DNA of 24,534 nucleotides from a virus. Its lineage: Duplodnaviria > Heunggongvirae > Uroviricota > Caudoviricetes. The stretch lies in IMG/VR virus record IMGVR_UViG_2698536676_000006. One strand, written 5' to 3'. Each line of letters starts with the position of its first letter. The first letter of the stretch is position 1. The position numbers were made by a program, and so were the translations under genes. The notes beneath the pieces are model-generated. The model made no database searches. It saw only the letters and a list, made by a program, of their open reading frames with translations, and had not been told where the DNA came from. Positions 3,796 to 24,534 of the stretch are shown in pieces.

Positions 3796-3805
3796 TGTTT
3801 CTCAC

Positions 3806-5222: not shown

Positions 5223-5225
5223 GAT

Positions 5226-6218: not shown

Positions 6219-6241
6219 AAAAAATTTGCTCCTTTGTCTTA

Positions 6242-7232: not shown

Positions 7233-8495
7233 ATGATTCAGGACGCTTTTGTGCGCCAGCGTGCGCGGCAACTTTACTGGCAGGGTTATCCGCCCGCAGA
7301 AATATCACGTCTGATGGGAATAAACCCGAACACGATTTATGCGTGGAAAAAACGCGACCAGTGGGATGAAACGCCCCCCGTGCAGCGTGTCACGCAGTCC
7401 ATCGATGCGCGCCTCATCCAGCTTACTGAAAAACAGAATAAAACAGGCGGTGACTTTAAGGAAATAGACCTGCTGACCCGGCAGCTTAAAAAGCTGCATG
7501 ATGGCCAGCCGGATGTGATGGCCGCAGGAAAGAAAGGCCGGGCGAAAAAACTTAAAAATCATTTCACGCCGGAACAGATTGCCGCACTGCGGGAAAAAAT
7601 CATCAGCAGGCTGGAGTGGCATCAGCGGGGCTGGTTTGACTCCCTGACACTTTGCAGGGAAGCCGGGATACGTAACAGGATGATCCTGAAATCCCGACAG
7701 ATTGGGGCGACCTGGTATTTTGCACAGGAAGCTCTGCTGATGGCGCTGCGTGACGATGTGGCGCAACCTTACCAGCGTAACCAGATTTTTTTGTCTGCGT
7801 CGCGTCGTCAGGCGTTCCAGTTTAAAAGCATTATTCAGAAGGTCGCGGCTGAAGTTGATGTGGAGCTGAAAGGGGGCGATAAAATCATCCTCTCCAACGG
7901 CGCAGAGCTGCATTTTCTCGGCACTTCTGCTGCGTCGGCACAGTCCTATACGGGCAATTTTTATTTTGATGAATTTTTCTGGGTCAGTCGCTTTGCTGAA
8001 CTGCGCAAGGTGGCTGGCGCTATGGCAACCCTCAGCGGACTGCGGCGCACCTACTTCTCCACGCCATCCACCGAAACGCACGAGGCGTACGCCTACTGGA
8101 ACGGCGACCGCTGGAACGAGAAAAAGGCCTCGCATAAACGCCAGCGTTTTTCTGTGGACTGGAAAACGCTGCATAACGGGCTTATCTGCCCTGACCGGAC
8201 TTGGCGGCAAATTGTCACGCTGGAAGATGTGGTTAATCACGGCTGGAAACACACCGATATCGACGAAATTCGTGATGAAAACACCGAAGACGAGTTCCTC
8301 AATCTCTATATGTGTGAGTTTGTCCGCGAAGGGGAATCGGCATTTAACCTGAATATCCTGATTGGCTGCGGTGTTGACGGATACGACGACTGGAAAGACT
8401 GGAAACCTTTTGCTCCCCGCCCGATGGGGAATCGTCCGGTATGGATTGGGTATGACGCAAACGGCAGCAGTGGCAACGGCGACATGCCAGCTTGA
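7233..8495 (+). pseudogene. Terminase ATPase subunit (P2 gpP-like), C-terminally truncated
   Basis: 420 aa with N-terminal ...LYWQGYPPAEISRLMGINPNTIYAWKKRDQWDE; P2 gpP is about 590 aa as I recall. The ORF ends shortly after VWIGYDA, and portal Q, cos and the tin/old region expected between P and A are absent. Confidence 0.75.
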
Positions 8496-8560
8496 TGTTG
8501 GTGGAGCCGTCGTCGATACAAATTTTCATGTCGCTTTTCCTTATGTTGATTAATTAATCG

Positions 8561-8670
8561 TTTACGGGATTCTGAAATCCCGTTTTTGCCTGTTTTATGC
8601 GCGCTTCATATATCGCGGCGCGTTTTTTGCTCATTTACGGGATTTGTGAATCCCGTTTCTGTCTGTTTTT
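8561..8670 (+). repeat. Two diverged direct repeats (8561-8596, 8634-8670), each an 8-bp-stem hairpin ACGGGATT-N4-AATCCCGT followed by a T-run
   Basis: Read directly: tttacgggattctgaaatcccgtttttgcctgtttt and tttacgggatttgtgaatcccgtttctgtctgttttt. Confidence 0.6.
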
Positions 8671-11428
8671 TGTTTCCACTGGTCAGGCCACCCCGCAGCA
8701 GGTCTGCTTTGCGGTGGGCGCGTTCAGTTGTTTCACTGATTCTCTGTGCGTGCTCTGCGTCGCGGATGGCGCGCAGCATGTCAGAAAGTACGGTAACGGG
8801 TGTTTTCATGGTGTTCTGGTCTTGCTGAAGTGTGGATGCCAGGCGTGCGGCGGCTTCATGGTCTGATGCCCTTAGTTGTTCCAGATAGCCGGCGACCGGG
8901 TTATGGCGGATCTCCGTGCTGCTTACGCCGTGATTACGGCTCAGGCGCTGCCAGAGCTGCGTGATTCGGCTGTCCGGGCGGGTATCCGGTTTGCGTACAA
9001 TTTCAAATCCCTGCGGTGCAATGATGCTGCCGTCAACGTACAGGCTGCCGCCCCGTAACAGGTGCTGCATCTGCTGTTCACCGATATGCAGGCCGAGAGA
9101 TTCGGCAGATTCCCGCCATTCTTTAGCGAGTAATTCGTGGTTATCAGGCAAAGGCCGCTGCTGTTTGCGGCTCTGTGTCCAGCTCTGCATTTCATCACTG
9201 CTGTTTTTTGCCTGTTTGTCACGCAGCGAACGCATCAGCGCCCGGCGTTCGTGCCGTTTCAGTGAGCGCATCCAGTCATCCACATCAACGCCGTCAGGAA
9301 GCTGCGGCCACAGTGCTGGCCGTTCTTCCGGCTGTTCTGTCCCGTTGTTGTCCGTTTCCTGTACACGGGGACAGTTATTGCCACGAGTCCAAGGGGCGGC
9401 AGGGCCGCCCTGAAGGTCAAAACCATTTTCGTGGGCGTTGTCTTCCGGTTCTGGTTTACGTCTTACCAGCTTCCAGTTATCCGGATGCGTGCACACACGG
9501 GAGGATTCCCCGATGAGTGGTGACCAGATCCCGTAAATCTGTACGCTCTGTTCGCCGTAATCGTTCAGCTCATCTGCGAGGTCGTAGGCGGTGCGAATCA
9601 GGTAGTCCTTGCGTGGAACAAGCACGCCACCCTGTTTTTCAATGTAGGTGGCAAAACACCCGGCATCGGCGGCAGCGAGTACCGCATCCATTGCATCATC
9701 TTTCAGCCGTTGCGGGCCTTCCGGATTGCGTGCCATCTGGCTGGCAAGGCGGCGCAGTTCACGCCACACCTGACGGGAGGGGATGCCAAAGAACTGGAAC
9801 TGACGGACCCGGTGAAGGCGCGCCCAGCCGATGGCGCGCTCCACGCTCTCGGCCATTGATTTTCCGGTTTCGTGGTCAACGCGTGGCTTGCCCGTTTTCG
9901 GGTCGATGCCATCCACGGCGCGGCTGTCCAGGTTCTTTCCGATGTAGGTGGCGATGTAGCTGGTTGGTGTGCCTTTTGAGCCGTCGACATACTCCGCCTT
10001 AAAACGCGGAGTTATGTCATCGCCCAGCTCGTGGCGGTCCTCCTGAATGGCAATATCGCAGACGTGGGACACGATGGTTTCAATCTCGTCCGGATGTGCA
10101 AAGACCATCATATGCCAGTGCACAGTGCCGTCATGGTGAGGCTCCACCGTGCGGATGCCATACCAGCGCAGGCCGTCGCGGTTCAGTTTTTTGCGGACCG
10201 CCGCAAAAAACGTGTTAACCAGGTAATCGCTGGAGTCGCGCATGGTGGCCCCGTTCCATTTGGGGTTCGGATGACCGTTCTCCGTTGTTGCGTGGTATTT
10301 TGACGGGCAGGTGACGGTCAGAAACACCGCTCTGTCGCCACGGGCTTCGGCCAGAAGTTCCAGTCCCTTCATGGTGGCCATCATTTCTGCCTTACGGTGA
10401 ACCGGGTTACTTACTCCCGCGTAATACACCGTCTCGAGATCAATCGTGAACCCGTCTTCATTTTCCAGCATGAAACTTTTCAGGAAATCGCGTGTTTTCT
10501 CGCGCTGTGCGCGAAACTCGCTTAACGCGTCCTGGCTCAGATAGGGGGATGTTTTTCTGGAAACCAGACAGGCGGCGCGGAGTTGTTCTTCCCGCCACTC
10601 ACAACGTAACAGCCACAGTTTGCGTTTCCACCATTCCGCACAGGTCAGGCGAAGGATTGCGCCCGGCAGCAGCTCCGTGTCCGGTTCGTTCCTCCGGTCT
10701 TTGTCTGTTGTCAGTGCGTCATAATGTGGAGGCATGGCGTGCAGGTGTAACGCCATGCGGGCCAGCATCTGATAAGCCTTCAGCGTTACATCCATGGTCA
10801 GCTCGCCATCAGTCGCGCCAAAGCCATCGCAGAGTTTTTCGAAGGTGCTGCTGAACATCGCCGCCGTCATGGTGGCCAGCGTCTGTATCTGGTGTTTGTT
10901 GAGCTGCGGCAGGTAAAGCAAATCATCCAGGCGTTCGCGTCCGGCAAGGGAGCGATAACCCGGTGTCAGCCAGCGGTGGTCGGTGCGGTCCAGACGTTCG
11001 AATATTTTGCGCAGGGTTCCGCACGCGTAGCGTTCAGCCTGCCAGCTCTTGTTGCCTTTCCGGCGATCGGCTTCCTGTTTTTTGCGCAGGAAGGAGAGGT
11101 GGCGAATAAGCGGATCGCGCAGATAGGACGGCAGCAGGCGCAGCGAGGCCATGGCTTCATCCACCGCGCCACGTGCCTGTTTTCTGGCGTCTCCTGCCAG
11201 TGTGATGGTTTTGTCCTGTTTTTCCTGTGCGTCCAGGCTTTTATTAATCAGGTTGCCCAGCGGCGTGGCGGAGAACGCCGCATCAGCCATTTCCTGGCGG
11301 CGCTCGTTCTCTGCCCGGTAGGCATCCAGCCAGGAGGAAAGCGCGGATTCAGGAGCGGGGATCCCCGTTCCTTCACGCCCCACTGCGTGGCGCGGTTGTT
11401 GCCAGTCCCTGATGTACTCTGCCGTCAT
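8606..11428 (-). CDS. Replication initiation endonuclease (P2 gpA-like, HUH rolling-circle nickase) with a C-terminal extension
   Basis: 940 aa; ...TVTCPSKYHATTENG...GIRTVEPHHDGTVHWHMMVFAHPDE... matches the P2 gpA catalytic core (HUH motif HWH). About 180 aa longer than P2 gpA (761 aa as I recall); the last codons run through the 8634-8670 hairpin. Confidence 0.85.
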   Translation of the reverse strand: MTAEYIRDWQQPRHAVGREGTGIPAPESALSSWLDAYRAENERRQEMADAAFSATPLGNLINKSLDAQEKQDKTITLAGDARKQARGAVDEAMASLRLLPSYLRDPLIRHLSFLRKKQEADRRKGNKSWQAERYACGTLRKIFERLDRTDHRWLTPGYRSLAGRERLDDLLYLPQLNKHQIQTLATMTAAMFSSTFEKLCDGFGATDGELTMDVTLKAYQMLARMALHLHAMPPHYDALTTDKDRRNEPDTELLPGAILRLTCAEWWKRKLWLLRCEWREEQLRAACLVSRKTSPYLSQDALSEFRAQREKTRDFLKSFMLENEDGFTIDLETVYYAGVSNPVHRKAEMMATMKGLELLAEARGDRAVFLTVTCPSKYHATTENGHPNPKWNGATMRDSSDYLVNTFFAAVRKKLNRDGLRWYGIRTVEPHHDGTVHWHMMVFAHPDEIETIVSHVCDIAIQEDRHELGDDITPRFKAEYVDGSKGTPTSYIATYIGKNLDSRAVDGIDPKTGKPRVDHETGKSMAESVERAIGWARLHRVRQFQFFGIPSRQVWRELRRLASQMARNPEGPQRLKDDAMDAVLAAADAGCFATYIEKQGGVLVPRKDYLIRTAYDLADELNDYGEQSVQIYGIWSPLIGESSRVCTHPDNWKLVRRKPEPEDNAHENGFDLQGGPAAPWTRGNNCPRVQETDNNGTEQPEERPALWPQLPDGVDVDDWMRSLKRHERRALMRSLRDKQAKNSSDEMQSWTQSRKQQRPLPDNHELLAKEWRESAESLGLHIGEQQMQHLLRGGSLYVDGSIIAPQGFEIVRKPDTRPDSRITQLWQRLSRNHGVSSTEIRHNPVAGYLEQLRASDHEAAARLASTLQQDQNTMKTPVTVLSDMLRAIRDAEHAQRISETTERAHRKADLLRGGLTSGNKKQTETGFTNPVNEQKTRRDI

Positions 11429-11434
11429 AGTGAT

Positions 11435-11800
11435 TTACTTCGTCATGCCATTCAGGGTGTCGCGGCAGACTGTAGCCAGCCGCTGAATTTCCAGCACGGT
11501 GTCTTCTGTGTCGGCATGGCGATGTGTGATGCGGATGCTGTCGGCAATCACATCGACGATTGCAGAGGATGGGCGCTGGTAAATGCCAATAACGGACGGG
11601 GTGCCACCTTCAATGCGGTAAAGCCTGTAATTTCCCTCGTGGCTGTCAATCATGTAGCGACCATCAATAACAATCTTTCCGTCAGCGAGCTGCGGTACAG
11701 GCAGGGATTTCAGGTACATGTCATAACGATCACGCACGCGAGCGGCAAGATCTCGTTCTGTGTTGAGCAGGTATTCAAGAAAGTCGTTGGCGAGAATCAT
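11435..11800 (-). CDS. Hypothetical early-operon protein (121 aa) directly upstream of gpA
   Basis: ATG with AGAGGA Shine-Dalgarno; 6-bp gap to the gpA start. Confidence 0.6.
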   Translation of the reverse strand: MILANDFLEYLLNTERDLAARVRDRYDMYLKSLPVPQLADGKIVIDGRYMIDSHEGNYRLYRIEGGTPSVIGIYQRPSSAIVDVIADSIRITHRHADTEDTVLEIQRLATVCRDTLNGMTK

Positions 11801-11872
11801 TGCGGCAATCCTCTTGTTACAGATGTGCGAAGGCCTCCCGCCGCAAGGTGCAGGAAAGGCCCGGAACAGGAA

Positions 11873-12103
11873 TTAATGGAGTTTGTTTTGCTGCTGGATG
11901 AGCTGTTGAAGCTCGTGCAGATCATCCGCCAGATAGCTGAAAACAGAGGCGGAATAAATGTTTGATAGTGCGTGGCTGCGCTCATGCAGCATATTGATGT
12001 GCATGATTTGCGCGACGCGTGATGCGCGGGAAAGTCTGTGGTTGATTTCAGTCTGGATGTGACGACGCTCCGCGATAGTGCGGTGCTGTTTGCGGTCTGC
12101 CAT
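11873..12103 (-). CDS. Hypothetical early-operon protein (76 aa, basic, no Cys)
   Basis: ATG at 12101-12103 with AGAGG upstream; no recognisable domain. Confidence 0.5.
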   Translation of the reverse strand: MADRKQHRTIAERRHIQTEINHRLSRASRVAQIMHINMLHERSHALSNIYSASVFSYLADDLHELQQLIQQQNKLH

Positions 12104-12425
12104 GGTGTGGCCTCTTTGCTCGGTGATAGAAATAACTCACCATCCAGAGTTGAGAATCTCGGGGTGGCGAGACGTACAGGGTTCTCAACACCGGAGAGCA
12201 AAGAATCCGGCCCGACCGAAGTCGGCCCCGTACGCCCCGCCATAATTCTGACGCGAAAAAGACGTGGCAATACAGTGCGCACAAAAAAACCGCTTGCGCG
12301 GTTATGCGCTTTGCTCTGTATCGGGTTGAGAATCCCGGCACCCGTTTTATGAGCTGCAGCGGAAATGTAACCTGACCGATTGAGGCATGGCAAGCGGTTT
12401 TTTTGTGTGTGCATGTTCTGGTTTC
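12104..12425. other. Structured non-coding gap inside the early operon: nested direct and inverted repeats; candidate ncRNA or regulatory/origin-like element
   Basis: GTTGAGAATC[T/C]CGG at about 12150 and 12325, inverted partner GTTCTCAAC at about 12175; CTTTGCTCT / AGAGCAAAG copies; 18-bp inverted repeat cacaaaaaaaccgcttgc at 12281-12298 and 12391-12408; hairpins TCTCG-N6-CGAGA, CCGGA-N9-TCCGG, GGCCCGAC-cgaa-GTCGGCC. Confidence 0.4.
12283..12310 (-). terminator. Candidate rho-independent terminator (AACCGC-gcaa-GCGGTT then TTTTTTTG on the minus strand)
   Basis: Plus strand reads caaaaaaaccgcttgcgcggtt; on the minus strand the hairpin is followed by a 7-T run. Confidence 0.5.
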
Positions 12426-12725
12426 TTACTGGTTCAGAAAAAAATCAAAAACGTTATCGATGCGTTGCAGCAGCTCTTGCTGCATTGCTTCCGGCGTTTC
12501 CGGTTCGCCAGGTGCCCCCAGCGTTGCGCAGAAATCAGCGATTTCATGATGGAGCGTGAGGCGAATGGCAGGAGCCGTGGTTCTGGCGTGCTCCAGCTGA
12601 TCCAGCAGTGCCAGCACAGCAGACGGCGAGAGCATTGCGCGAAATGCCAGTAATTTTTGAGGCGTTGCCATTCGTTGCAGGGCAAATGCCAGTTCGTGTA
12701 GCTTCTGGTGGTTGATGGTGCTCAT
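12426..12725 (-). CDS. Hypothetical protein (99 aa)
   Basis: ATG with GAAGGAAG Shine-Dalgarno; start overlaps the upstream stop (ATGA). Confidence 0.55.
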   Translation of the reverse strand: MSTINHQKLHELAFALQRMATPQKLLAFRAMLSPSAVLALLDQLEHARTTAPAIRLTLHHEIADFCATLGAPGEPETPEAMQQELLQRIDNVFDFFLNQ

Positions 12726-12988
12726 GCTCTGGCTTCCTTCAGTAGCTGGTTAAACATGTGAGTAAGTGGATTGCTACACCCGAACAGCATCGGGTTTACG
12801 TGGTAAGAAGCCTGGCCTCCTGTTTTGCGAGCGCGACCACCTGTGCTGCGGTTTGTTCTGATGACTAAGCCGCCGCGCCAAAGTCGGCGTAACTCAGCAT
12901 TAATGGCTGTGGTTGGGGTATTCAGTGCTGCGGCGATCTCTCCGCCGCTACACCCCGGATGAGTAGCGATGTAGTCCAGAATGGTCAT
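12722..12988 (-). CDS. Putative winged-helix DNA-binding protein (88 aa)
   Basis: MTILDYIATHPGCSGGEIAAALNTPTTAINAELRRLWRGGLVIR looks like an HTH / winged-helix; AGGAG Shine-Dalgarno; ATGA overlap with the upstream gene. Confidence 0.6.
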   Translation of the reverse strand: MTILDYIATHPGCSGGEIAAALNTPTTAINAELRRLWRGGLVIRTNRSTGGRARKTGGQASYHVNPMLFGCSNPLTHMFNQLLKEARA

Positions 12989-13188
12989 CTGCGTGGCTCC
13001 TGTACCTGTCGGATAAGATTCACCCGCGCCACGTTGGTGGCGCAGAAGTAAGTGCCGTCAGTGAGGTAGATGTGGTGTGCATCCTTTTCCGAACGATGTT
13101 TGTCGATAGTGGTAATCAGGCGTTCGTCGACCTCGTATTCGCGCCCTCTGGAGGTAAAGCGAACGACGGGAAAATGCTTAATTGCCAT
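12985..13188 (-). CDS. Hypothetical protein (67 aa)
   Basis: ATG with AAGGGGG Shine-Dalgarno. Confidence 0.5.
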   Translation of the reverse strand: MAIKHFPVVRFTSRGREYEVDERLITTIDKHRSEKDAHHIYLTDGTYFCATNVARVNLIRQVQEPRR

Positions 13189-13242
13189 TGCGCCCCCTTT
13201 GTCCAGTAACCCTATGCGTTAAATACGGCACATTGCGCGTCA

Positions 13243-13629
13243 TCAATGAATACAGCTTGAGAGCGTTCTATCAGGCGGAGATTTGTCAGAAGCTCTGACT
13301 CTTTTGTGTGGTAAGGCGTTATCAGGTATTTGCCGTGCAGTTCGGCAATAATGGTGTATTGCAGCATCATTGCTGAACCAAGAATATAAAATGCAGCGTC
13401 CAATGCTGGACGGATTCATGGCTGCAACTGTTGACTGTGTTTTAAGAGTGTCGATTTCTTTGCTCTGTTCCTCAATAACTTTGGCTGCTTCAGAGGCGGC
13501 TATTGCGATGGTCAGTGCGTAAAGCGCTGCCATATGTTGATTATCTTTCTGGGCTGCCCTGGACAGCTTGTCTTGCTCTGCTGACACTATTTTTAATGTA
13601 TTGATAATATTTTTTTCTTTTGCGTTCAT
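13243..13629 (-). CDS. Hypothetical protein (128 aa); N-terminal half coiled-coil-like, C-terminal half possibly frameshifted
   Basis: Strong start (GGAG then ATG at 13627-13629); a 63-aa ORF in another frame (13212-13403, TTG start) overlaps the 3' half. Confidence 0.45.
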   Translation of the reverse strand: MNAKEKNIINTLKIVSAEQDKLSRAAQKDNQHMAALYALTIAIAASEAAKVIEEQSKEIDTLKTQSTVAAMNPSSIGRCILYSWFSNDAAIHHYCRTARQIPDNALPHKRVRASDKSPPDRTLSSCIH

Positions 13630-13721
13630 TTTATATCTCCGTTATTTACGTGTGCGAATACCTCCGCGAATGCGGATAGTTTTCAGGTTTTCGGGTTTAA
13701 TCTGGTGTTTTGTTTAAGCTG

Positions 13722-13835
13722 TTATTTGTCAGTAAAAAAGCGTTCAATCTTTTTTACTGAATGAATAATTCGCATAATCCCAATGGCGCAGGCCACCGAA
13801 ATAATCAGAACAAGCCATGAGATAAATATACTCAT
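13722..13835 (-). CDS. Small hydrophobic peptide (37 aa, MSIFISWLVLIISVACAIGIMRIIHSVKKIERFFTDK), predicted single transmembrane helix
   Basis: Not in the ORF track (under 60 aa). Hand-translated: ATG at 13833-13835 overlaps the stop of the 80-aa gene upstream (ATGA coupling); a 20-residue hydrophobic stretch is followed by a basic tail. Confidence 0.4.
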   Translation of the reverse strand: MSIFISWLVLIISVACAIGIMRIIHSVKKIERFFTDK

Positions 13836-14074
13836 GCGATATTCCCCAGCTTATACGGTTCAATGTGTTCCCCGCATTCTGCGGCACAGATCAGCTCGGA
13901 AAGTTCGTTAAGTGCATCCAGATCATCAGCGTAAAAAGCAACGTCATACAAACTCCGGATTGCCCTGGTCAATGAGTCACGGGCTGCATGTTCAGCATGA
14001 GCGCCTGATGCACTTAAGCGAAAATAAAATCGTTCAAGTGCTTTGTTAATGAGAGTTTTATATTCTTTGCCCAT
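13832..14074 (-). CDS. Hypothetical protein (80 aa)
   Basis: ATG with AAGGG Shine-Dalgarno. Confidence 0.55.
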   Translation of the reverse strand: MGKEYKTLINKALERFYFRLSASGAHAEHAARDSLTRAIRSLYDVAFYADDLDALNELSELICAAECGEHIEPYKLGNIA

Positions 14075-14085
14075 CGCAACGCCCT

Positions 14086-14364
14086 TTAATCTGCTTTCTG
14101 AATTTCAGCTTCTGAATCCATACAAATAATTTCGATATAGGGTTCATCGCCATTAACCTGACGTGCCTTTTCAGCTTCGCTAATGATTTCTCGTACGGTC
14201 TGGTACGGAAGCTCCACAGTCAGGCGCGTACCGTTCAGATAAACGTAAGTAGTTGCGTTTTTTTCGGATGGAACAACTCCGTCAATGGCTGATGCGCGTA
14301 ATAACAGTTCACCGCGAAAATCAATAAAACGGATAAATACACCTTGTGCATGCTCTTTGGTCAT
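14086..14364 (-). CDS. Hypothetical protein (92 aa from the ATG at 14362-14364)
   Basis: AGGTG Shine-Dalgarno 5 nt upstream of that ATG; the tool's 14424 start is TTG and overlaps the upstream gene. Confidence 0.55.
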   Translation of the reverse strand: MTKEHAQGVFIRFIDFRGELLLRASAIDGVVPSEKNATTYVYLNGTRLTVELPYQTVREIISEAEKARQVNGDEPYIEIICMDSEAEIQKAD

Positions 14365-14374
14365 AAAGCACCTG

Positions 14375-14725
14375 TTATAAATCAGCCTGTTTAATAAAAC
14401 TTTGCCCGCGAAGCAGACGATCAACCGTGCGAAGTGCTTCGTATAATGTGAAATCCTGCCCGAAGTGATTGTCGCCGCAGTTCAATGCAAAAATGCGGTT
14501 TCCGGTAAACGGATTGCGTGGGCATTTGTGGATCACGATTCCAGCTTTCTCAATCAGCCAGGCATGCTCGCCGATTTGTTTTACAGCGTGGCCATCCGGT
14601 GTTGCGTGCGTCTCGTTCAGGTTATAGCGACTGTTACTACGTGATGCACTGGTAGCGACGTGGTGTACATGGCGTTCTACGCTATTACGAAATTTGGAGT
14701 ATGGATTATTAGCGTTTTTTTTCAT
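14375..14725 (-). CDS. Hypothetical protein (116 aa, His/Cys-containing)
   Basis: ORF with ATG start in operon context. Confidence 0.55.
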   Translation of the reverse strand: MKKNANNPYSKFRNSVERHVHHVATSASRSNSRYNLNETHATPDGHAVKQIGEHAWLIEKAGIVIHKCPRNPFTGNRIFALNCGDNHFGQDFTLYEALRTVDRLLRGQSFIKQADL

Positions 14726-14746
14726 GATGGTGCTCTGTTCATTGTT

Positions 14747-14950
14747 TTAGCTGTTAGCCAAAGCGTCTTTTAACATCGCCACAAGGTTTACTTCAGGCTT
14801 TTCCATTTTGGCGCGTTTGGGGCGGATAATAATTCGACCGTCAGCCAACATCTTTTTGCATGTATTAAGAGGGATACCTGTTATCTCTGCATATTTCTGC
14901 AGGGATACATAGGGGGCATTCACATTGATATTGATGGTTATACCTGACAT
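14747..14950 (-). CDS. Cox/Apl-like excisionase-type HTH regulator
   Basis: 67 aa; ...APYVSLQKYAEITGIPLNTCKKMLADGRI... resembles the P2 Cox HTH region as I recall it; correct position in the early operon. Confidence 0.6.
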   Translation of the reverse strand: MSGITININVNAPYVSLQKYAEITGIPLNTCKKMLADGRIIIRPKRAKMEKPEVNLVAMLKDALANS

Positions 14951-14966
14951 CCCACTAGCCTCCTGA

Positions 14967-15173
14967 TCAGGAAGATTTGTTTTGTTCTTTCTGGGTTAGC
15001 TCTAGGCCGCGAAGGAAGATCATGCGCGCCATGTTAGAGGATGAGCGTTGTTCTTTAGCTGCCATTTCATCAATGACGGCTCGCTCCTCGAGGGACAGCC
15101 GAAGTGCCAGTCTTGGACCTGTGGCGGTGTTACGCGGAATGCGTGATCTGGTATCGTGAAGAACTTGTTTCAT
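14967..15173 (-). CDS. Putative ribbon-helix-helix regulator, first gene of the early leftward operon
   Basis: 68 aa; LALRLSLEERAVIDEMAAKEQRSSSNMARMIFLRGL fits the RHH beta-strand/helix pattern; no clear Shine-Dalgarno. Confidence 0.5.
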   Translation of the reverse strand: MKQVLHDTRSRIPRNTATGPRLALRLSLEERAVIDEMAAKEQRSSSNMARMIFLRGLELTQKEQNKSS

Positions 15174-15248
15174 AGTGGTATATTGTGATCATCTAATAGC
15201 TCGTGAAATCATTTGGTATCAAAAAAGATACCTGTCAAGGTTTTTTGT
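15174..15248. promoter_or_regulatory. Immunity-switch intergenic region between divergent early operon and repressor; 18-bp palindrome GGTATC-aaaaaa-GATACC (15215-15232) as candidate operator
   Basis: Perfect palindrome read directly; a TTGACA hexamer on the minus strand (15233-15238) abuts it. Confidence 0.5.
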
Positions 15249-15653
15249 ATGAAAAATGATATTGGTCAGCGGTTGCGTGAGGAAAGGGAAAGATTGGGAC
15301 TTAGTCAAGTTGCCATGAGCGACATTGGTGGAGTCAAAAAGCTAACTCAGCTTAGATATGAGAAAGGAGATAGCTTTCCTGATGCTGCGTATTTGGCAGC
15401 GCTGTCTCGTTTTGGCCTTGATGTTCAGTATGTTGTGTTGGGAATTCACTCACCTGAAACTTATAACGATGATGAGCAGGAGTTGATTACTCGCTTTCGA
15501 GCAGCTTCGTTAGATGTGAAAAACGCGGTGATTGGGGCTTTAAAAGGTGCGATCAGTGAAAAGGAAACTCAGCCATCAGGACGTGAGTTAAATATTTCTG
15601 GTGGTAATAACCGTATCGCTGGTCGTGACTATAACGAAACTAAGGGTAGGTGA
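15249..15653 (+). CDS. CI/C-type immunity repressor (XRE-family HTH)
   Basis: MKNDIGQRLREERERLGLSQVAMSDIGGVKKLTQLRYEKGDSFPDAAYLAALSRFGLDV is a canonical XRE HTH; ATG at 15249 preferred over the tool's TTG at 15213; integrase-proximal, divergent from the early operon. Confidence 0.75.
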   Translation: MKNDIGQRLREERERLGLSQVAMSDIGGVKKLTQLRYEKGDSFPDAAYLAALSRFGLDVQYVVLGIHSPETYNDDEQELITRFRAASLDVKNAVIGALKGAISEKETQPSGRELNISGGNNRIAGRDYNETKGR

Positions 15654-15668
15654 TAGTAGGGAGGTGAC

Positions 15669-16319
15669 ATGGCCGTCAACTCAAACGGTTCAAACAATCG
15701 CGTTGCTGGGCGTGATTTTCACGAAAAGAATATTCAGATAGAGCGATATGATGGTTCTCATACCGTCAATATCGCAATCCCTTCGAATAATGATGATGAC
15801 GATCGCCCTTTGCTTAAGGCTCAGCGTAAGGAGCTAAATAGCTTGGTTGCTGCTATTGCAGAAGCTAGCAATACTGAAGCGTTTATTATTTGGCAAAAAG
15901 TACATGCGGAGATTGGTGTAGCTGGTATTGATGATATGACAGTAAATCAATATAAAACAGCGGAGAGTTTTCTGCATGCAATGCTTGAGCGATGTAAAGA
16001 TCATGATGCCTGTAAGGCTCTTGTAAGTTTATTACTACGTAACAGTGAAGACTGTGGACTTCGACAAAAACTTCTGCGGTATTGCCATATCAATTTCGGT
16101 ACAGGACGTTTAAACGATCTTACTCGTTCTCAGTTACAGTCTGCATTGTCGTGGTTAGAGCAACAATCGGCATCAAGCCACACAGAGAGTTCGACCTTAC
16201 CAGAAGTCCGACTTCGTGCTTCAGAATTAATCCGACTTTATCCAAAAGAAATAATATTCTTTATCTGCGTAGGGGTTTTGGTAGGCGGTGTCATTTCTAG
16301 GGCGTTTTTTAATTTGTAA
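15669..16319 (+). CDS. Cargo gene: 216-aa protein with C-terminal transmembrane anchor (candidate superinfection-exclusion / abortive-infection protein)
   Basis: GGGAGG Shine-Dalgarno; C-terminal IIFFICVGVLVGGVISRAFF hydrophobic helix; N-terminal SNGSNNRVAGRDFHE echoes the repressor C-terminus ISGGNNRIAGRDYNE; lies where P2 has repressor and integrase adjacent. Confidence 0.65.
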   Translation: MAVNSNGSNNRVAGRDFHEKNIQIERYDGSHTVNIAIPSNNDDDDRPLLKAQRKELNSLVAAIAEASNTEAFIIWQKVHAEIGVAGIDDMTVNQYKTAESFLHAMLERCKDHDACKALVSLLLRNSEDCGLRQKLLRYCHINFGTGRLNDLTRSQLQSALSWLEQQSASSHTESSTLPEVRLRASELIRLYPKEIIFFICVGVLVGGVISRAFFNL

Positions 16320-16348
16320 TCTTACTTGAGCTAAATTGAGGTAATGAT

Positions 16349-16696
16349 ATGAAAGTAAAAAAGGTTCAACTATTAGTTACTTTTTTATCTATGTTTTCTT
16401 TTTCCGCCGTCGCAATGCCTTTTAAAACTATTGAACGTGAGAGTTTCAATGGGGTATGGCCATTTAATACTGATGAGGTTCAATTACAGTGTCTTGATGG
16501 TAATCCTTATGTGATGAATTTTGACGATAATAAGTTATATGCACTTACAGGTTTGGCTCGAATAAAAGGTAAAACATTTGGTGCGTTACCGTTAGATAAC
16601 AATAATCCATTTTGGCTAGATAATGATGCCGCCCCAGGGTTAAAAAAGAGCCTGGGGGATGTCACTAAGGCTGCATTTGATTTATGTGATAAGTAA
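16349..16696 (+). CDS. Cargo gene: small secreted protein with signal peptide and two Cys
   Basis: MKVKKVQLLVTFLSMFSFSAVA-MP signal-peptide-like N-terminus; GAGG Shine-Dalgarno; Cys in QCLDG and DLCDK. Possibly DUF2511-like; unverified. Confidence 0.65.
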   Translation: MKVKKVQLLVTFLSMFSFSAVAMPFKTIERESFNGVWPFNTDEVQLQCLDGNPYVMNFDDNKLYALTGLARIKGKTFGALPLDNNNPFWLDNDAAPGLKKSLGDVTKAAFDLCDK

Positions 16697-16701
16697 CTAA
16701 A

Positions 16702-17703
16702 ATGTCGGTTCGTAAGATTCCATCAGGTAAATGGCTTTGCGAATGTTATCCCTACGGGGCATCGGGAAAACGCATTCGTAAACAGTTTGCGACAAAAAGT
16801 GAGGCGCTCTCTTATGAGCGCCGTTTAATGAATAGTAGAGTTGGAGACGAGTTTCAAGATGGTTCTGGTCCTCGTCTTTCTGAGTTGATTGCTCGTTGGT
16901 TTGAGATGTACGGTAAAACCTTGTCCTCTGGTGCAGAGCGCAAAGTCAAACTTGAGGCGATTTGTTCCAGGCTGGGAGATCCATTTGCTTCTCAGTTTGA
17001 CAAAAATATGTTTGCCACTTATCGGGAAAGAAGGTTATCAGGAGAGTGGAATCCCAAGGGGAAGAAAAAACTTAGTGAAGCAACCGTTAATCGCGAGCAG
17101 TCATATCTACATGCTGTTTTTGCCGAACTGAAGCGCCTTGGGGAGTGGTCTGGTGAAAACCCCCTGACTGGTATTCGCAAGTTTCGTGAGGAAGAAAAGG
17201 AACTGGCGTTTCTGTATGTAGATGAGATTGAACGCCTTCTGATTGCGTGTGATGAGTCACGGAATAAAGATTTGGGGGTTGTTGTCCGTATTGGGCTTGC
17301 GACTGGTGCTCGGTGGAGTGAAGCAGAAGGGTTAAAGCAATCTCAAGTACTGCCCGGTCGAATCACATTTGTTAAAACTAAAGGAAAGAAGAACCGCACT
17401 GTACCGATTTCACCTCAATTGCAGGCTATGCTTCCCAAAAAACGAGGAGCGCTATTTTCACCATGTTATGAGGCTTTTGACGCTGCAATTAAGAGAGCGA
17501 AGATCGAGCTTCCTGATGGGCAATTAACTCATGTGCTACGTCACACGTTTGCCAGTCATTTTATGATGCGGGGCGGAAATATTCTTGTGTTGCAAAAAAT
17601 ACTGGGGCATAGCGATATAAAAATGACTATGCGTTATGCGCATTTTGCTCCAGGTCATTTAGAGGCTGCTGTTGAATTGAACCCTTTTGACAATAGAGGG
17701 TAA
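16702..17703 (+). CDS. int: P2-type tyrosine integrase
   Basis: 333 aa; TGARWSEAEGLK, ITFVKTKGKKNRTVPIS, HVLRHTFASHFMMRGGNILVLQKILGH, YAHFAPGHL align with P2 Int as I recall it. Confidence 0.9.
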   Translation: MSVRKIPSGKWLCECYPYGASGKRIRKQFATKSEALSYERRLMNSRVGDEFQDGSGPRLSELIARWFEMYGKTLSSGAERKVKLEAICSRLGDPFASQFDKNMFATYRERRLSGEWNPKGKKKLSEATVNREQSYLHAVFAELKRLGEWSGENPLTGIRKFREEEKELAFLYVDEIERLLIACDESRNKDLGVVVRIGLATGARWSEAEGLKQSQVLPGRITFVKTKGKKNRTVPISPQLQAMLPKKRGALFSPCYEAFDAAIKRAKIELPDGQLTHVLRHTFASHFMMRGGNILVLQKILGHSDIKMTMRYAHFAPGHLEAAVELNPFDNRG

Positions 17704-17809
17704 AAAGTGGCGATAAAAAGTGACAATAGATTCAAATGGCGTTGTATAGAGCCATTTTCAAAGTTAATAAAATCATAAGGTTATGATTTATAAATGGTGG
17801 TTGATAGTT

Positions 17810-17864
17810 TTTAAAATCCCTCGGCGTTCGCGCTGTGCGGGTTCAAGTCCCGCTCCGGGTACCA
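17810..17864 (+). tRNA. 3' fragment (about 55 nt, from the anticodon loop to CCA) of tRNA-Leu(UAA), leuZ-like; integration-site core, not a complete tRNA
   Basis: TTTAAAATCCCTCGGCGTTCGCGCTGTGCGGGTTCAAGTCCCGCTCCGGGTACCA: T-arm GCGGG-TTCAAGT-CCCGC, long variable arm, acceptor 3' strand plus ACCA; no 5' half upstream. Confidence 0.65.
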
Positions 17865-17905
17865 TGGGAAAGACAAGAATAATCAAAGCAATAAGCAGTG
17901 TCGTG

Positions 17906-17930
17906 AAACCACCTACGGGTGGTTTTTTTG
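17906..17930 (+). terminator. Rho-independent terminator (AAACCACC-tacg-GGTGGTTT plus T-run)
   Basis: Read directly from sequence. Confidence 0.6.
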
Positions 17931-17964
17931 TGCCTGAAATTCACGCCCTGTGCATATCCTGTGC

Positions 17965-18846: not shown

Positions 18847-18926
18847 TCTTCAATCCTGCCCCGTAATAAAAACACCTTCAGATATATATTATTTTCATGA
18901 TATCAATCAGATATATGAGGATAAAT

Positions 18927-20126
18927 ATGCAAAAATCCTTCCGATTCACCAATTCATCCATCAAAGCCCTTCCGGCAAACACAGATACCCGATCTACAGA
19001 GCTTGAGGTATCCGATACTGAGGTCATTGGCCTCAAATGCCTCTCAGGTCGAACGGGTAACAAACGTTTCCTCCTGCGCTACACATTCCACGGTACCAAA
19101 AAAAGTATCAGTATTGGCAGATTCCCTGAAATTGATGTGGGGACAGCCCGTCAGATAGCTCGTCGTCACAAGGAGGCGATTGCACTGGGAAATGACCCTA
19201 AGGCAGAACGCGATAATTATCGTGCTATGCCAACGCTTAGTGAGTTTTTTCACCAGACCTATGTTCCGTTCATCAAACGCCATAAAAAGTCCTGGGATAA
19301 GGATGTTCAGCGTTTCACGCAATACATTGAACCTTGTCTGGGGAAGATACGTTACTGTGACCTTCGGGCCCGGGAAATCCAGCAGGTGCTTTTCGACATG
19401 CTTGAGGGTCGTATTCACGGGCAGCAATATGCGCCGTCTACCTGTAACAGAGCCCTTGCTATTCTGAAAACGATGGGGCGTTATGCGTTGCGACAGGATG
19501 TGCTGGAAAAGAATGAAGCCGATAAGATCCCTTTACTGAAAGAGAATAATCAGCGGACGCGCTTTTTTGATGCTGATGAGATCAGGCGCATTCTTGACGC
19601 TGCTACCCAATATCCCAACAAAGCTGCCGGGGGATTGATAGCCATGTTGTTGTTAACCGGTACACGCAAAACAGAAATGCTTAATGTCAGGCATGAACAT
19701 ATCGACCGGGCCAATCGTACTCTGTTCATTCCTTATACAAAAAATGGTCGCAGTCGGACGGTATATCTAAGCGATGCCGCATTATCGATTATTGATGCTA
19801 TCCCACGAGTTGGCAGTAATCCGTATCTGTTCGCCATTAAGGATAATGGCAAACCGATATCGGAACCCCGATGGGCATATGAAAAAATACTGGCACAGTG
19901 CGGTATAGACAAGAATGAAGTCTGTTTTCACACCACACGTCATTCTGTTGCCTCTTTACTGGTTTCGAGTGGTCAATTCAGCCTGTATGACGTTAAAGCC
20001 CAACTGGCGCATGCCAGTATTCAGAGTACAGAACGTTACGCGAAATTAACACCGGAACGTATGCGTCAGACAGGGCAGGGAGTGACTGACCTGCTTCTGA
20101 ATACTGCGGCTACGAAGCAGATGTGA
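18927..20126 (+). CDS. int: P4-family tyrosine integrase (genomic-island type)
   Basis: N-terminal arm-binding domain (...GLKCLSGRTGNKRFLLRYTFHGTKKSISIGRFPEIDVGTARQIARRHKEAIALGNDPKA) and catalytic region (...TRHSVASLL...ERYAKL); ATG at 18927 with GAGG Shine-Dalgarno preferred over tool start 18897. Confidence 0.85.
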   Translation: MQKSFRFTNSSIKALPANTDTRSTELEVSDTEVIGLKCLSGRTGNKRFLLRYTFHGTKKSISIGRFPEIDVGTARQIARRHKEAIALGNDPKAERDNYRAMPTLSEFFHQTYVPFIKRHKKSWDKDVQRFTQYIEPCLGKIRYCDLRAREIQQVLFDMLEGRIHGQQYAPSTCNRALAILKTMGRYALRQDVLEKNEADKIPLLKENNQRTRFFDADEIRRILDAATQYPNKAAGGLIAMLLLTGTRKTEMLNVRHEHIDRANRTLFIPYTKNGRSRTVYLSDAALSIIDAIPRVGSNPYLFAIKDNGKPISEPRWAYEKILAQCGIDKNEVCFHTTRHSVASLLVSSGQFSLYDVKAQLAHASIQSTERYAKLTPERMRQTGQGVTDLLLNTAATKQM

Positions 20127-21497: not shown

Positions 21498-21932
21498 ATG
21501 CAAACCCAATATGCCTTAAAACAGGCAGGATTAACTCTGCCTGTTACTAAAGAATTTCAGCAGCATATTACTACTCTTCTGGCAAATCAGGTTTTACAAA
21601 AAATAACTGAGGCAGTGGTTATTAATTTCCGTGATCCGGACTACAGTGCAGAATCCGGGGGCTTTCATCCCGTTGAAATACGGTTTATCCGTAAGAATAA
21701 TGAATGGTATTTTGATTATGTCACAGATTTTAGTTATATGGGGCGTGTCTACCCTGAGCTGGAAAAAGAAATTGATTTTTGCTGGTCGGGGAATTATGTC
21801 TTCCATTATCTGATTGGGGATATTTCACTGGCAGCAGAGAGGAATGAACTCTGGTCCCTGTGGGAGCGTAATTTTATGGAGTATCTCTCTATGGGGATTT
21901 ACCGGGTAACGGTAACTGTGGAAAGTTGTTGA
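21498..21932 (+). CDS. Operon gene 3: 144-aa hypothetical protein (Trp/Tyr/Phe-rich)
   Basis: AAAGGA Shine-Dalgarno; 72-bp gap with no terminator before it. Confidence 0.65.
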   Translation: MQTQYALKQAGLTLPVTKEFQQHITTLLANQVLQKITEAVVINFRDPDYSAESGGFHPVEIRFIRKNNEWYFDYVTDFSYMGRVYPELEKEIDFCWSGNYVFHYLIGDISLAAERNELWSLWERNFMEYLSMGIYRVTVTVESC

Positions 21933-22045
21933 CCCGTTATGAACAGGAAGAAAGCGGGCGGCTTTGTAATCTACTGCATGTGGCGTGCATCACAGCATGG
22001 AGATGATGTCTCTTTTTCCTAGCTGTTCGCATAAACAAGTGCAGA

Positions 22046-22076
22046 CACGGGGGATCTCAGATCCCTCGTGGTTTTT
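22046..22076 (+). terminator. Rho-independent terminator closing the three-gene operon (CACGGGGGATCT / AGATCCCTCGTG then GTTTTTG)
   Basis: Read directly from sequence. Confidence 0.55.
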
Positions 22077-22233
22077 GCCCCCTATGGAGCATTCTCCTGT
22101 AGCAGGGTGATAACGGTTAATCCATTACCCCAACTACAGTATTACACCGGTAATAAATGTTCATGAATACAGTTAGTTATGTGGGTTTTGAGGTGGGCTA
22201 TGTCATCGTTGACGATAACTGAAGGTTTTACAG

Positions 22234-22461
22234 ATGTATAAAACTCGCGGTGAAAGGATCGCAGAAAGGCTGTGCTGGATATTACTTCAACTGTATACCG
22301 GTAATACGGTATCGGTTAATGATATATGTCAGCGTTTCGCGGTCAGTCGCCGAACCGGACAGCGTGATTTGTTGAGAGTTGAAACTGTAACGGAAACTAT
22401 TTCACCTGGAAGGGTAAGGCTGGCAAGTTTGATAAGGGAACGAGTTAGACGAAATTTTTAA
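22234..22461 (+). CDS. Small HTH protein (75 aa) resembling the N-terminal DNA-binding domain of a WYL/DeoR-type regulator
   Basis: ERIAERLCWILLQLYTGNTVSVNDICQRFAVSRRTGQRDLLRVE parallels [40 protein letters not shown] of the WYL protein at 23423-24325. Confidence 0.5.
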   Translation: MYKTRGERIAERLCWILLQLYTGNTVSVNDICQRFAVSRRTGQRDLLRVETVTETISPGRVRLASLIRERVRRNF

Positions 22462-22496
22462 TCGAATCCATATCAATACTATAAAATATGAAAATT

Positions 22497-22522
22497 AACG
22501 GGAGTAAATATATACTCCCGTT
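22497..22522. terminator. Hairpin between convergent genes (AACGGGAGTA-N6-TACTCCCGTT), T-rich on both sides
   Basis: 10-bp perfect stem read directly. Confidence 0.5.
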
Positions 22523-22542
22523 ATAATGCAACCTTTTTTTAA

Positions 22543-23361
22543 CTACTCAAATGATATTAATTTAGGTGCGACAGTGTTTTTATGATGTGTTGAATTTGCA
22601 AGATTAATAATATCATGAAATGATTTCATGTCGTCGTCAGTGATTTCTAGGGCTGGATCAGCTAAATCGGCACAGGTAACATTTAACCAGTGTGTTAATG
22701 AATCAATCCTGTTTGAAGTAATATATTCAGTGTGACCAATATTCCACTTCCAGTTGATTATCCGAGCAGGTCTGAATCTCACCTCCCGAACCCCAATTGG
22801 CGTTACTGACTCTACGAGAGGGTATATCGTGTTAAGTACTTTATCATGTTCACTGTAGATATTTAAATGCCCCATTTTTGAACCGTAAGCCATTTTCATT
22901 ATGTTCTCTGTATAACTTGTTATTGGGGTGGCTCCGGCCATAGAGATTGTTAAGAGAATATTATCATTTTTAATATAGGGTAATGTATTGTTTATTAATC
23001 GAGTCCCTAAAGAATGACCCATTATGATCACATTACGCTTTTCTTTAACGTATATCTCGTTTATTACGTGTGCTAATTTTTCTCTGTTATTAACTGCTGC
23101 TTTCGTTGCATTATACCAGGCCTGACGCGCTTTAAATGGAATGGAGATTGATGACAATAAAGGAGATGTTCTCAGGGGGAAGAGAGTATATAACCCCCAC
23201 TTGTTCGCTATGTCAGAACTTAATATGGATAGTAGATTTGCCGATTCCCATTTATAGTATCTGACATCAAGGCCACACCCTGCTTTAATTCGGTTAAACC
23301 ATGATATATCATTTTCGGTCAGAAACCCTGATACAACAAGAAGAACCGGGCATTTTTTCAT
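22543..23361 (-). CDS. Alpha/beta-hydrolase-fold serine hydrolase (esterase/lipase-like), candidate effector
   Basis: 272 aa; IIMGHSLGTRL carries a G-x-S-x-G nucleophile elbow; GGAG Shine-Dalgarno; AT-rich. Confidence 0.7.
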   Translation of the reverse strand: MKKCPVLLVVSGFLTENDISWFNRIKAGCGLDVRYYKWESANLLSILSSDIANKWGLYTLFPLRTSPLLSSISIPFKARQAWYNATKAAVNNREKLAHVINEIYVKEKRNVIIMGHSLGTRLINNTLPYIKNDNILLTISMAGATPITSYTENIMKMAYGSKMGHLNIYSEHDKVLNTIYPLVESVTPIGVREVRFRPARIINWKWNIGHTEYITSNRIDSLTHWLNVTCADLADPALEITDDDMKSFHDIINLANSTHHKNTVAPKLISFE

Positions 23362-23422: not shown

Positions 23423-24325
23423 TTACGGGGCGTTACTTGGCTGGGTGTAACGTTTCAGTGCGGATTGTATATCTTCAGCAAGTTGTTGACGGATTGAGGC
23501 CGGTTGTATTACTTCGACATCCGGTATCCAGTATTTCATTAAAGGCATTATCTGATCTGTGTGTGTTACACGTGATATCACCAGTAAATCGCCAGACCGG
23601 GAAGTATGAATTATTTCCTGTCCTGGCAATAGATGACGGTGGGTAAACCACGGAGCAACATGTGCGGAAACTGAAATAAGAGCTTCGATAAGGTCTTCGC
23701 TATACCAGATACCATCTGTCTTTTCTATTTTTTCATTAATTTCGGGGATTATCCTGAAAGAGATATTACTCATGCAAACGTCTTTGACAGATGAGATAAC
23801 AAAGCTTTTTAATGTACTGTCATGGGCGGCAGCGAGATACCACAATCCGTTGTCATTAACCAGTCTGTATGGCTCAACAGCCCGAAACTCTTTATCTTTG
23901 TAATTAAAATTTACTTTCTTCTGTGACAGGATGGCATCGGATAATACATTCAGAATTGACATGAATGATCCGCAGTTTTCGTATGGACGTTGTTTTATCA
24001 GAAACGGGTTGTTTTTCGTGTTACCTAACAAAATACTCAGTAGTCTGTCATCCCAGCGAGGGAACAGCCCTTCAATACCCAGGATGCGCGTGAAATGACG
24101 TAAATCAGCATTGCTGCGTTGACCGAGAACACCGTCAGACAGGCGATAGCGACCATTTTGTCGAATCAGATTAAGATAGGACAGGCGCTGAGTAAGATCA
24201 CGACGGATAGTTTTTTCGCAAACGTTAAATTCCTCAGATAACTCCCGGACGGCTAGTGACTCACCATTGTTCAGGCGAGTTAATATCAATCCGAGTCGAT
24301 ATCCAAGTTTATCGTGCTTACCCAT
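23423..24325 (-). CDS. WYL-domain transcriptional regulator (HTH-WYL architecture, BrxR/CapW-like)
   Basis: 300 aa; N-terminal HTH ([35 protein letters not shown]), central LWYL motif ([12 protein letters not shown]); ATG lies 5 bp from the IS1 end. Confidence 0.75.
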
Positions 24326-24330
24326 TCATT

Positions 24331-24534
24331 GGTGATGCTGCCAACTTACTGATTTAGTGTATGATGGTGTTTTTGAGGTGCTCCAGTGGCTTCTGTTTCT
24401 ATCAGCTGTCCCTCCTGTTCAGCTACTGACGGGGTGGTGCGTAACGGCAAAAGCACCGCCGGACATCAGCGCTATCTCTGCTCTCACTGCCGTAAAACAT
24501 GGCAACTGCAGTTCACTTACACCGCTTCTCAACC
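24331..24534 (+). mobile_element. IS1 left-end fragment; element continues right of the window
   Basis: GGTGATGCTGCCAACTTACTGATTTAGTGTATGATGGTG...CACCGCTTCTCAACC matches the IS1 5' end. Confidence 0.9.
24386..24534 (+). CDS. insA: IS1 InsA, 5' partial
   Basis: GTG GCT TCT GTT TCT ATC AGC TGT CCC..., the InsA N-terminus. Confidence 0.75.

Follow-up and report, generated by a model that had tools for sequence, protein, structure and literature searches.

The window, by which we mean the whole 24,534-nt stretch of DNA analyzed here, joins a prophage to one end of a pipolin. Positions 1-17809 hold a P2-like prophage co-integrated between leuZ and the pipolin, with genes for a tail fibre, baseplate J, the GPO scaffold, terminase, the GPA replication protein and an integrase (16702-17703). 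At the junction between prophage and pipolin, 134 nt of the leuZ 3′ region recur as a partial copy (17810-17943). ARAGORN finds no tRNA in the window, and the flanks examined contain no att direct repeats around the pipolin core, only this partial leuZ copy.

On the plus strand, the tRNA-Leu-proximal end of the pipolin carries a P4/SXT-type tyrosine integrase at 18897-20126, recognized by Pfam (Arm-DNA-bind_3 and Phage_integrase), by synteny and by a position that is that of the published IntSXT. The DUF2787 pipolin core gene (21498-21932, plus strand; Pfam DUF2787, 3.8e-40; syntenic in all loci) lies directly 5′ of the gene described in this paper, which we call the small HTH gene. It occupies 22234-22461 on the plus strand, with its ATG at 22234 and its stop ending at 22461, and encodes a stand-alone winged helix-turn-helix (wHTH) protein of 75 aa without a WYL or WCX domain. 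The minus strand carries a cargo gene for a 272-aa DUF726-type alpha/beta-hydrolase (22543-23361; Pfam DUF726 and LCAT, no PADLOC match), 61 nt 3′ of the gene for the pipolin-core WYL protein, a 300-aa wHTH-WYL-WCX regulator (23423-24325, minus strand; Pfam HTH_DeoR, WYL and WCX). At 24331-24534, 5 nt upstream of the WYL start codon, the window ends in a copy of an element that we take, from its terminal repeat, to be IS1; its end was placed from the sequence and by comparison with the native upstream region in locus L005.

Gene order of the tRNA-Leu pipolin core

In related loci that are long enough, the gene order is constant. It runs from pgsA and glyW-cysT-leuZ through a 246-aa gene (minus strand), the integrase (plus strand), a zinc-ribbon ORF, two orphan genes, DUF2787, the small HTH gene, the cargo and the WYL gene (minus strand) to a gene for an 866-887-aa protein (minus strand), a 200-212-aa gene, an excisionase-like HTH_17 gene and a second integrase (minus strand). 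The 866-887-aa protein has weak PolB matches and contains the motifs KH-X8-KTRG, SVTTDG and DTE (L005, L004). Their residue numbers agree with those published for Escherichia coli piPolB (K613, H614, K623, D59 and E61), counting from an internal start 21 codons into the 887-aa ORF; the product called in related loci has 866 aa. At the level of its sequence, the protein is confirmed as piPolB. It is not visible in the window because IS1 and the window end intervene.

The account of Mateo-Caceres and Redrejo-Rodriguez (PMC11551731) gives the enterobacterial pipolin core as IntSXT near tRNA-Leu, DUF2787, WYL, orphan proteins, piPolB, an excisionase and IntP2, places the tRNA-Leu site between pgsA and yecA, and describes pipolins as defence carriers. 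Judged by gene content and order, the locus is this published core, and the small HTH gene belongs to its synteny; a search of the main text found no mention of the gene. The small HTH gene is a previously unremarked core gene of the enterobacterial tRNA-Leu pipolins. The stretch is matched in 327 of 5426 complete E. coli genomes.

Conservation, fold and relatives of the small HTH protein

The small HTH ORF is a genuine conserved gene. A Shine-Dalgarno-like GAAGG is read from the sequence at 22221-22225 (plus strand), 8 nt 5′ of the ATG, and the AGGT core of this site and the ATG start are invariant across seven alleles. The product is a very basic protein of 8.8 kDa (pI 11.3). It differs from its Citrobacter freundii orthologue at 68 nucleotides, 44 of them in third codon positions, which corresponds to a pS of 0.77, a pN of 0.15 and a pN/pS of 0.19; the gene is under purifying selection, with synonymous sites near saturation. 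A pseudogene or chance ORF is effectively ruled out by this ratio together with the conserved length, start and Shine-Dalgarno sequence.

A search of 5.8 billion proteins returned short homologues only, of 45-87 aa. Orthologues of 76-78 aa with 73-77% identity occur in Citrobacter, Enterobacter, Serratia and Scandinavium, and scanning genomes brought in Franconibacter, Intestinirhabdus and Buttiauxella as well. The length is constant at 71-78 aa across E. coli, these seven genera and Yersinia. No fused, full-length form was found among the 5.8 billion proteins, which were searched twice, and the WYL domain is absent from every homologue of 71-87 aa.

The exact 75-aa sequence is present on 312 contigs and near-identical 75-aa forms on thousands more, where the best name given is ‘hypothetical protein’. 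A few copies are frameshifted or truncated by IS1, and in some genomes the IS1-truncated proteins end in ...GDAANLLI. In both E. coli RefSeq genomes that were examined (NZ_CP024275.1 and NZ_LR882973.1), the gene has no annotation from the NCBI PGAP pipeline, and a 600-bp ‘intergenic’ gap is the site of the gene (L001 6335-6562, L002 4335-4562). Orthologues that are annotated bear the name ‘DeoR family transcriptional regulator’ though they have no DeoRC domain, a label that over-states what is known. NCBIfam has no family that covers the protein.

AlphaFold2, run with the family alignment, models the protein with a pLDDT of 90 as a winged helix-turn-helix followed by one C-terminal helix, the elements being helices at residues 5-21, 28-35 and 39-48, a beta-hairpin wing at 53-63 and a helix at 65-74. 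Pfam matches are below threshold, with HTH_11 at E = 2.3e-4 and HTH_DeoR at E = 2.9e-3 (17.8 bits against a Pfam cut-off of 21). Pfam gives no match to WYL (PF13280), WCX (PF25583) or DeoRC, the model ending in the single helix 65-74, and none to HTH_17 at E <= 1; Xis and other excisionase families likewise show no similarity. Sequence searches of the PDB with the family profile and with the WYL protein gave nothing usable, the profile finding no PDB sequence. The small protein is a wHTH of the HTH_11/DeoR-like type.

Its likeness to the WYL regulator in the same window is detectable and limited. BLASTP aligns the two over 70 columns (26% identity, 15 gaps); the E-value of 3e-4 holds for that single comparison. 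The small-HTH family profile scores the window WYL regulator at 29.5 bits, equivalent to E = 0.06 at the scale of a library of 1.84 billion proteins, and the Citrobacter WYL allele at 25 bits. Among 1.84 billion representative proteins, this profile finds only 31 at E <= 1e-3. The best multi-domain matches with a clean single match (P0032, P0033 and P0036; 295-300 aa, E from 2e-7 to 1e-6) are wHTH-WYL-WCX proteins, matched over profile positions 3-75, and P0045 and P0048, lower in the list, are WYL proteins as well. The list also contains one DeoR-DeoRC protein (P0040, 39.9 bits), HATPase_c_4/Schlafen-type proteins and a GIY-YIG protein, and several unlinked HTH_11/DeoR-type domains, at 36-47 bits, outscore the window WYL regulator. 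When the profile was run over the 1779 ORFs of 28 loci, the neighboring WYL regulators scored 20-30 bits and HTHs of other classes (GerE-type UvrY and others) at most 7. In PADLOC, the sole match of the small protein is the HTH part of a WYL-protein model, and phrog_13105 matches both it and the WYL regulator.

A score matrix of N-termini separates the WYL proteins compared into two wHTH clades. The small HTHs cluster with the clade of P0032, P0033 and P0036 (48-57 bits) and reach only 24-39 bits against the clade of the neighboring WYL N-termini. A recent tandem duplication of the neighbor's HTH is ruled out by this matrix. The recognition helix of the small HTH, RRTGQRDLLR, also differs from that of the WYL regulator. 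The resemblance is at the subfamily level and unspecific to the neighbor: the small HTH is a BrxR/CapW-type wHTH minus the sensor and dimerization domains, and no recent copy of the gene beside it.

These results bear on the original prediction, which saw in this ORF a domain-sized HTH like the N-terminus of the WYL regulator about 1 kb away, aligning with it by eye, lacking a WYL domain and perhaps a truncated paralogue. The 75-aa HTH ORF is borne out by its coordinates, the Pfam HTH matches and the AlphaFold2 model, the lack of a WYL domain by the lack of Pfam WYL or WCX matches, and the kinship with WYL-regulator HTHs by the top multi-domain profile matches, the PADLOC model and phrog_13105. 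The distance is right for the stop of the WYL gene, about 1 kb off, but its HTH-coding end lies about 1.9 kb away. The alignment with the neighbor is real, but it is weak and would not single the neighbor out. As to whether the similarity exceeds that between arbitrary HTH proteins, it is above that of other HTH classes but no better than that of several HTH_11/DeoR-type domains. The truncated paralogue is not upheld, given the length kept at 71-78 aa, the pN/pS of 0.19, the lack of a fused form and the closer match to a different WYL clade; nor are the close homologues elsewhere full-length WYL proteins, in any instance among the 5.8 billion proteins.

Among characterized systems, the BrxR/CapW proteins, wHTH-WYL-WCX repressors of BREX, CBASS and other defence islands, share their N-terminal wHTH type with the small HTH, whereas their WYL ligand-sensing domain, WCX dimerization domain and cross-over helices are all absent from it; identity to the solved proteins (PDB 7T8K, 7QFZ, 7TB6 and 9C5G) is 14-17%. 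BrxR/CapW proteins bind inverted repeats at their own promoter and repress a downstream defence operon. No inverted-repeat operator was found at the small HTH gene, which is followed by a same-strand gene in the Citrobacter and Yersinia lineages and by none in the lineage of this window. Since it lacks the defining WYL and WCX features, the small HTH lies outside the BrxR/CapW family, and it therefore cannot sense ssDNA in the way described for CapW (PMC11662680).

The pipolin-core WYL regulator shares with the small HTH the element, the cargo slot, a convergent arrangement and a homologous wHTH, and the two diverge similarly between two lineages, the small HTH being 75% and the WYL regulator 71% identical to its Citrobacter allele. 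It differs in its wHTH sub-clade and recognition helix, in having a box pair of its own (described below) and in being only 26% identical to the small HTH. The DeoR family (HTH_DeoR plus DeoRC) shows weak HTH_DeoR/HTH_11 similarity, but its DeoRC sugar-phosphate sensor is absent, which places the protein outside the definition of that family. The solo HTH_11/DeoR-type mini-proteins P0034 (66 aa), P0046 (83 aa) and P0052 (76 aa) are alike in size and HTH type but distant in sequence (E from 4.5e-7 to 6.4e-4), and P0034 groups with the other wHTH clade; P0046 and P0052 lie on contigs shorter than 1 kb. Excisionases (HTH_17, Xis) differ from the small HTH both in family and in their adjacency to an integrase.

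Cargo slot and regulatory DNA

The small HTH and WYL genes are convergent, with a variable cargo slot between them, in each locus that reaches that far, whether the WYL gene is intact or frameshifted. In the lineage of this window (lineage A), the 75-aa small HTH has no plus-strand cargo, and the minus strand carries the DUF726 hydrolase and the 300-aa WYL regulator; only 81 bp separate the small HTH gene from the next gene, which is unrelated, and they hold no WYL remnant. In lineage B, the Citrobacter type, a 78-aa small HTH heads a three-gene plus-strand unit with two small signal-peptide-like genes, cf106 and cf130, opposite a minus-strand LeoBC-like GTPase gene, a 135-aa gene and a 308-aa WYL regulator. 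In the L003 copy of this lineage, the 106- and 130-aa genes lie at 8323-9078 (plus strand), have signal-peptide-like N-termini and match no family; this version of the slot has its LeoBC/LeoA-like GTPase and 135-aa protein at 9138-10425 (minus strand). A third E. coli allele encodes a 76-aa small HTH, again without plus-strand cargo, a DUF726 homologue on the minus strand and a frameshifted WYL gene. The frameshift splits the WYL gene into ORFs of 149 and 154 aa (L026 5559-6463, minus strand; L025 11138-12532), and the small HTH and the DUF726 homologue are intact despite it. The DUF726 hydrolase and the LeoBC/LeoA-like GTPase with its 135-aa protein are uncharacterized candidates for defence or toxic effectors that a BrxR-like regulator would control.

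An island of Yersinia enterocolitica extends the arrangement to a 71-aa HTH of 41% identity. Its order is DUF2787, LRAT, the 71-aa HTH, GRAM and 261-aa genes on the plus strand, then a convergent 125-142-aa gene and a WYL-WCX gene (303-310 aa) on the minus strand; the LRAT stop and the HTH start overlap, both genes being part of a unit that runs from DUF2787 to the 261-aa gene. The island (L016 2627-13169) has a pipolin-like left core that includes an integrase, and a DUF927 gene instead of piPolB, followed by an Avs-like nSTAND NTPase gene; it is a piPolB-less relative of pipolins. Its WYL protein and the pipolin WYL regulator are orthologous, scoring 110-118 bits across the N-terminal 85 aa, and the pairing of small HTH and WYL is therefore old and stable.

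Within pipolins, which small-HTH allele a locus has (99-100% or 73-79% identity) goes with its WYL and cargo type, and DUF2787 identity does not follow them. The L007 recombinant, for instance, has a lineage-B-like DUF2787 (85%) with a lineage-A HTH (99%) and WYL (96%). The breakpoints between lineages fall in the spacer between DUF2787 and the small HTH gene (L007, L013). Because physical adjacency can explain such linkage, functional coupling of small HTH and WYL is not proven by it.

The spacer itself, non-coding at 21933-22150 in the window, is 77-97% identical between pipolin lineages, even though the neighboring gene is close to saturated at synonymous sites (pS 0.77). It contains a near-invariant hairpin with an 11-bp stem, followed by GTTTTTG, at 22046-22070 (plus strand; terminator scan, RNA fold of -21.9 kcal/mol, z = -3.5), which is found once per pipolin locus at 93-97% identity between lineages and probably terminates transcription of the DUF2787 unit. 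Each locus has the spacer palindrome a single time, and the Yersinia island lacks it. Since the breakpoints fall here, the spacer may, besides terminating transcription, act as an anchor for the recombination that exchanges cargo. The terminator scan places another hairpin at 22496-22523, between the convergent small HTH and DUF726 genes (folds of -16.6 and -17.5 kcal/mol, z = -6.6 and -5.9); its T-run is on the minus strand only, so that transcription of the WYL-DUF726 unit probably ends there.

A promoter scan found no plus-strand sigma-70-like promoter upstream of the small HTH gene. As for an operator of its own, the inverted repeats in 21933-22560 amount to the two terminator hairpins and weak pairs, and no conserved inverted repeat was found upstream of the gene. 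The 12-bp palindrome ATCGTTGACGAT (22204-22215) was considered and rejected as an operator because it is not conserved in the Citrobacter amalonaticus locus L007, which is 99% identical. Rfam, searched over 21800-22700 at a permissive threshold, gave one chance sub-threshold match only.

The WYL gene, by contrast, has boxes of the form GGACANNNTGNGTCC, exactly two per locus and upstream of this gene only, in all 12 of the pipolin loci that hold the region; none is near the small HTH gene. They form an inverted pair 65-77 nt apart (L005 12141-12157 and 12235-12251; L003 11394-11408 and 11479-11493), and the Yersinia island has an analogous pair (L016 13220-13240 and 13306-13326). On the model of BrxR, which binds inverted repeats at its promoter (PMC9122601), they are candidate WYL operators. 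We found no description of the boxes in the literature consulted. In L005, a 108-aa orphan gene (12471-12797, plus strand) is divergent from the WYL gene and shares the box-flanked intergenic region with it; this gene is present in lineage A, absent from lineage B and without a family match.

The window has no GGACANNNTGNGTCC box because IS1 displaced the region upstream of WYL. Homology to L005 ends at 24327, and the native counterpart of window positions 24326-24534 is L005 12092-12470. The insertion replaces the native WYL Shine-Dalgarno sequence (GGATAAACGAATG becoming CACCAATGAATG), the promoter and both operator-like boxes, and the WYL-DUF726 unit of this strain is probably silenced or driven from IS1. 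In L002, an IS1 is annotated at the equivalent place, and IS1 also truncates DUF726 there.

Regulatory role and alternatives

Our preferred reading, to which we give somewhat better than even chances on the sequence evidence, is that the small HTH serves the pipolin core as a transcription factor without a sensor, autoregulating its rightward unit in parallel to the WYL regulator. It builds on a real gene with a defined fold, family relationships and synteny, co-inherited with the WYL and cargo side. We infer that the protein binds DNA, which it would contact through helix 3 (residues 39-48, RRTG[Q/R]RDLLR) and the beta-hairpin wing; its effect on target promoters, as a repressor or as an activator, would be set by its own concentration, without a sensor. 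In E. coli, it would probably autoregulate its rightward unit through its own allele-specific upstream region, and where downstream plus-strand cargo is present this too would probably be under its control, namely cf106 and cf130 in the Citrobacter type and the GRAM and 261-aa genes in Yersinia. The WYL regulator would drive the convergent leftward unit, in which the DUF726 or GTPase cargo follows WYL, from a promoter region with the two GGACANNNTGNGTCC boxes on either side. The small HTH would act alongside the WYL regulator and not through it, a predicted independence that follows from the boxes being upstream of WYL only and from its closer relationship to a different wHTH clade. Against the transcription-factor reading, neither an operator nor a plus-strand sigma-70-like promoter was found for the gene, the lineage of the window has no downstream plus-strand gene, and the protein is without the WCX and cross-over interfaces through which BrxR dimerizes (PMC9122601). 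Against independence, the constant pairing with WYL across a divergence down to 41% identity could equally mean a functional partnership.

Such a partnership was anticipated by the original prediction, which proposed a decoy or anti-repressor in the same circuit. As partner, decoy or antagonist, the small HTH would occupy WYL-type operators or pair with the WYL protein, so that repression of cargo or core would no longer respond, or would respond differently, to the ssDNA or damage signal that the WYL domain detects. The bracketing of the cargo slot by the two genes in every sufficiently long locus, including Yersinia, the BrxR/CapW-like fold and the tracking of WYL and cargo type by the small-HTH allele, as seen with the L007 recombinant, are consistent with this. 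Yet the neighbor's wHTH is the least similar among those of the WYL proteins compared (24-39 against 42-57 bits), the surfaces that form BrxR-type dimers are missing with WYL and WCX, one lineage keeps an intact small HTH beside a frameshifted WYL, and adjacency with breakpoints in the conserved spacer can account for the linkage. We consider a partner role unlikely, and the decoy or anti-repressor in particular finds no support, the recognition helices being different and the GGACANNNTGNGTCC pair lying nowhere near the small HTH gene; cross-regulation through these boxes, or competition for them, is not supported. The broader proposition that small HTH and WYL form a two-regulator switch around the cargo slot, or that the small HTH is a constitutive super-repressor on BrxR-type operators, seems to us quite unlikely. 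In a host-directed version of the second form, the protein would serve anti-defence by sitting on host operators of the P0032/P0033/P0036 clade and holding defence islands off whatever the signal. Its nearest multi-domain relatives are indeed unlinked WYL regulators in front of defence-like operons (an AAA ATPase; a dynamin-like GTPase with YjcZ), and it has no sensing domain of any kind; however, identity to that clade is only 37-41%, the recognition-helix residues are not identical, a shared operator is not known, and pipolins are themselves described as defence carriers in PMC11551731, so that a host-directed super-repressor strikes us as very improbable.

An architectural role has a rather low probability in our view. 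Instead of regulating transcription, a small, very basic winged helix might bend DNA at att sites for the SXT/P4-type integrase or at the start of piPolB replication, as a recombination-directionality factor or replication accessory, and the gene lies on the same strand as, and 3′ of, a tRNA-proximal integrase that has no adjacent excisionase, the second integrase by contrast adjoining an HTH_17 gene. The small HTH nevertheless shows no HTH_17, Xis or excisionase similarity, all its sequence and structure matches being transcription-factor wHTHs, and it lies 2.1 kb from the integrase, beside the cargo slot, co-transcribed with cargo genes in two lineages. Hardly any credence is left for a non-functional remnant, either a truncated WYL pseudogene or a chance ORF, to which the missing PGAP annotation in two E. 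coli RefSeq genomes, the Pfam matches under the gathering thresholds and the frameshifted or IS1-truncated copies might point. A remnant would be at odds with a low pN/pS at near-saturated synonymous sites, a confident fold, a start, Shine-Dalgarno sequence and length kept over at least nine genera, and the 81 bp downstream that hold no trace of WYL before an unrelated gene.

We regard the result as a well-supported improvement in annotation together with a modest lead; the protein joins the broad class of small winged-helix DNA-binding proteins. Pipolins are recently described, widespread defence-carrying islands with a minimal core, to which the small HTH adds a second, predicted DNA-binding protein. 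Two wHTH genes, of which only one encodes a sensor, converge on the cargo slot of this core from either side, and the candidate WYL operator boxes GGACANNNTGNGTCC are directly testable. If the small HTH controls cargo or core expression, as in our preferred reading, it would offer a simple handle on how pipolins switch between silence and activity. If instead it antagonizes WYL-type regulators, it would represent a new regulatory principle for defence islands, and a switch or super-repressor, should either prove true, would show a mobile element adjusting or overriding, in a new way, defence expression induced by damage or ssDNA.
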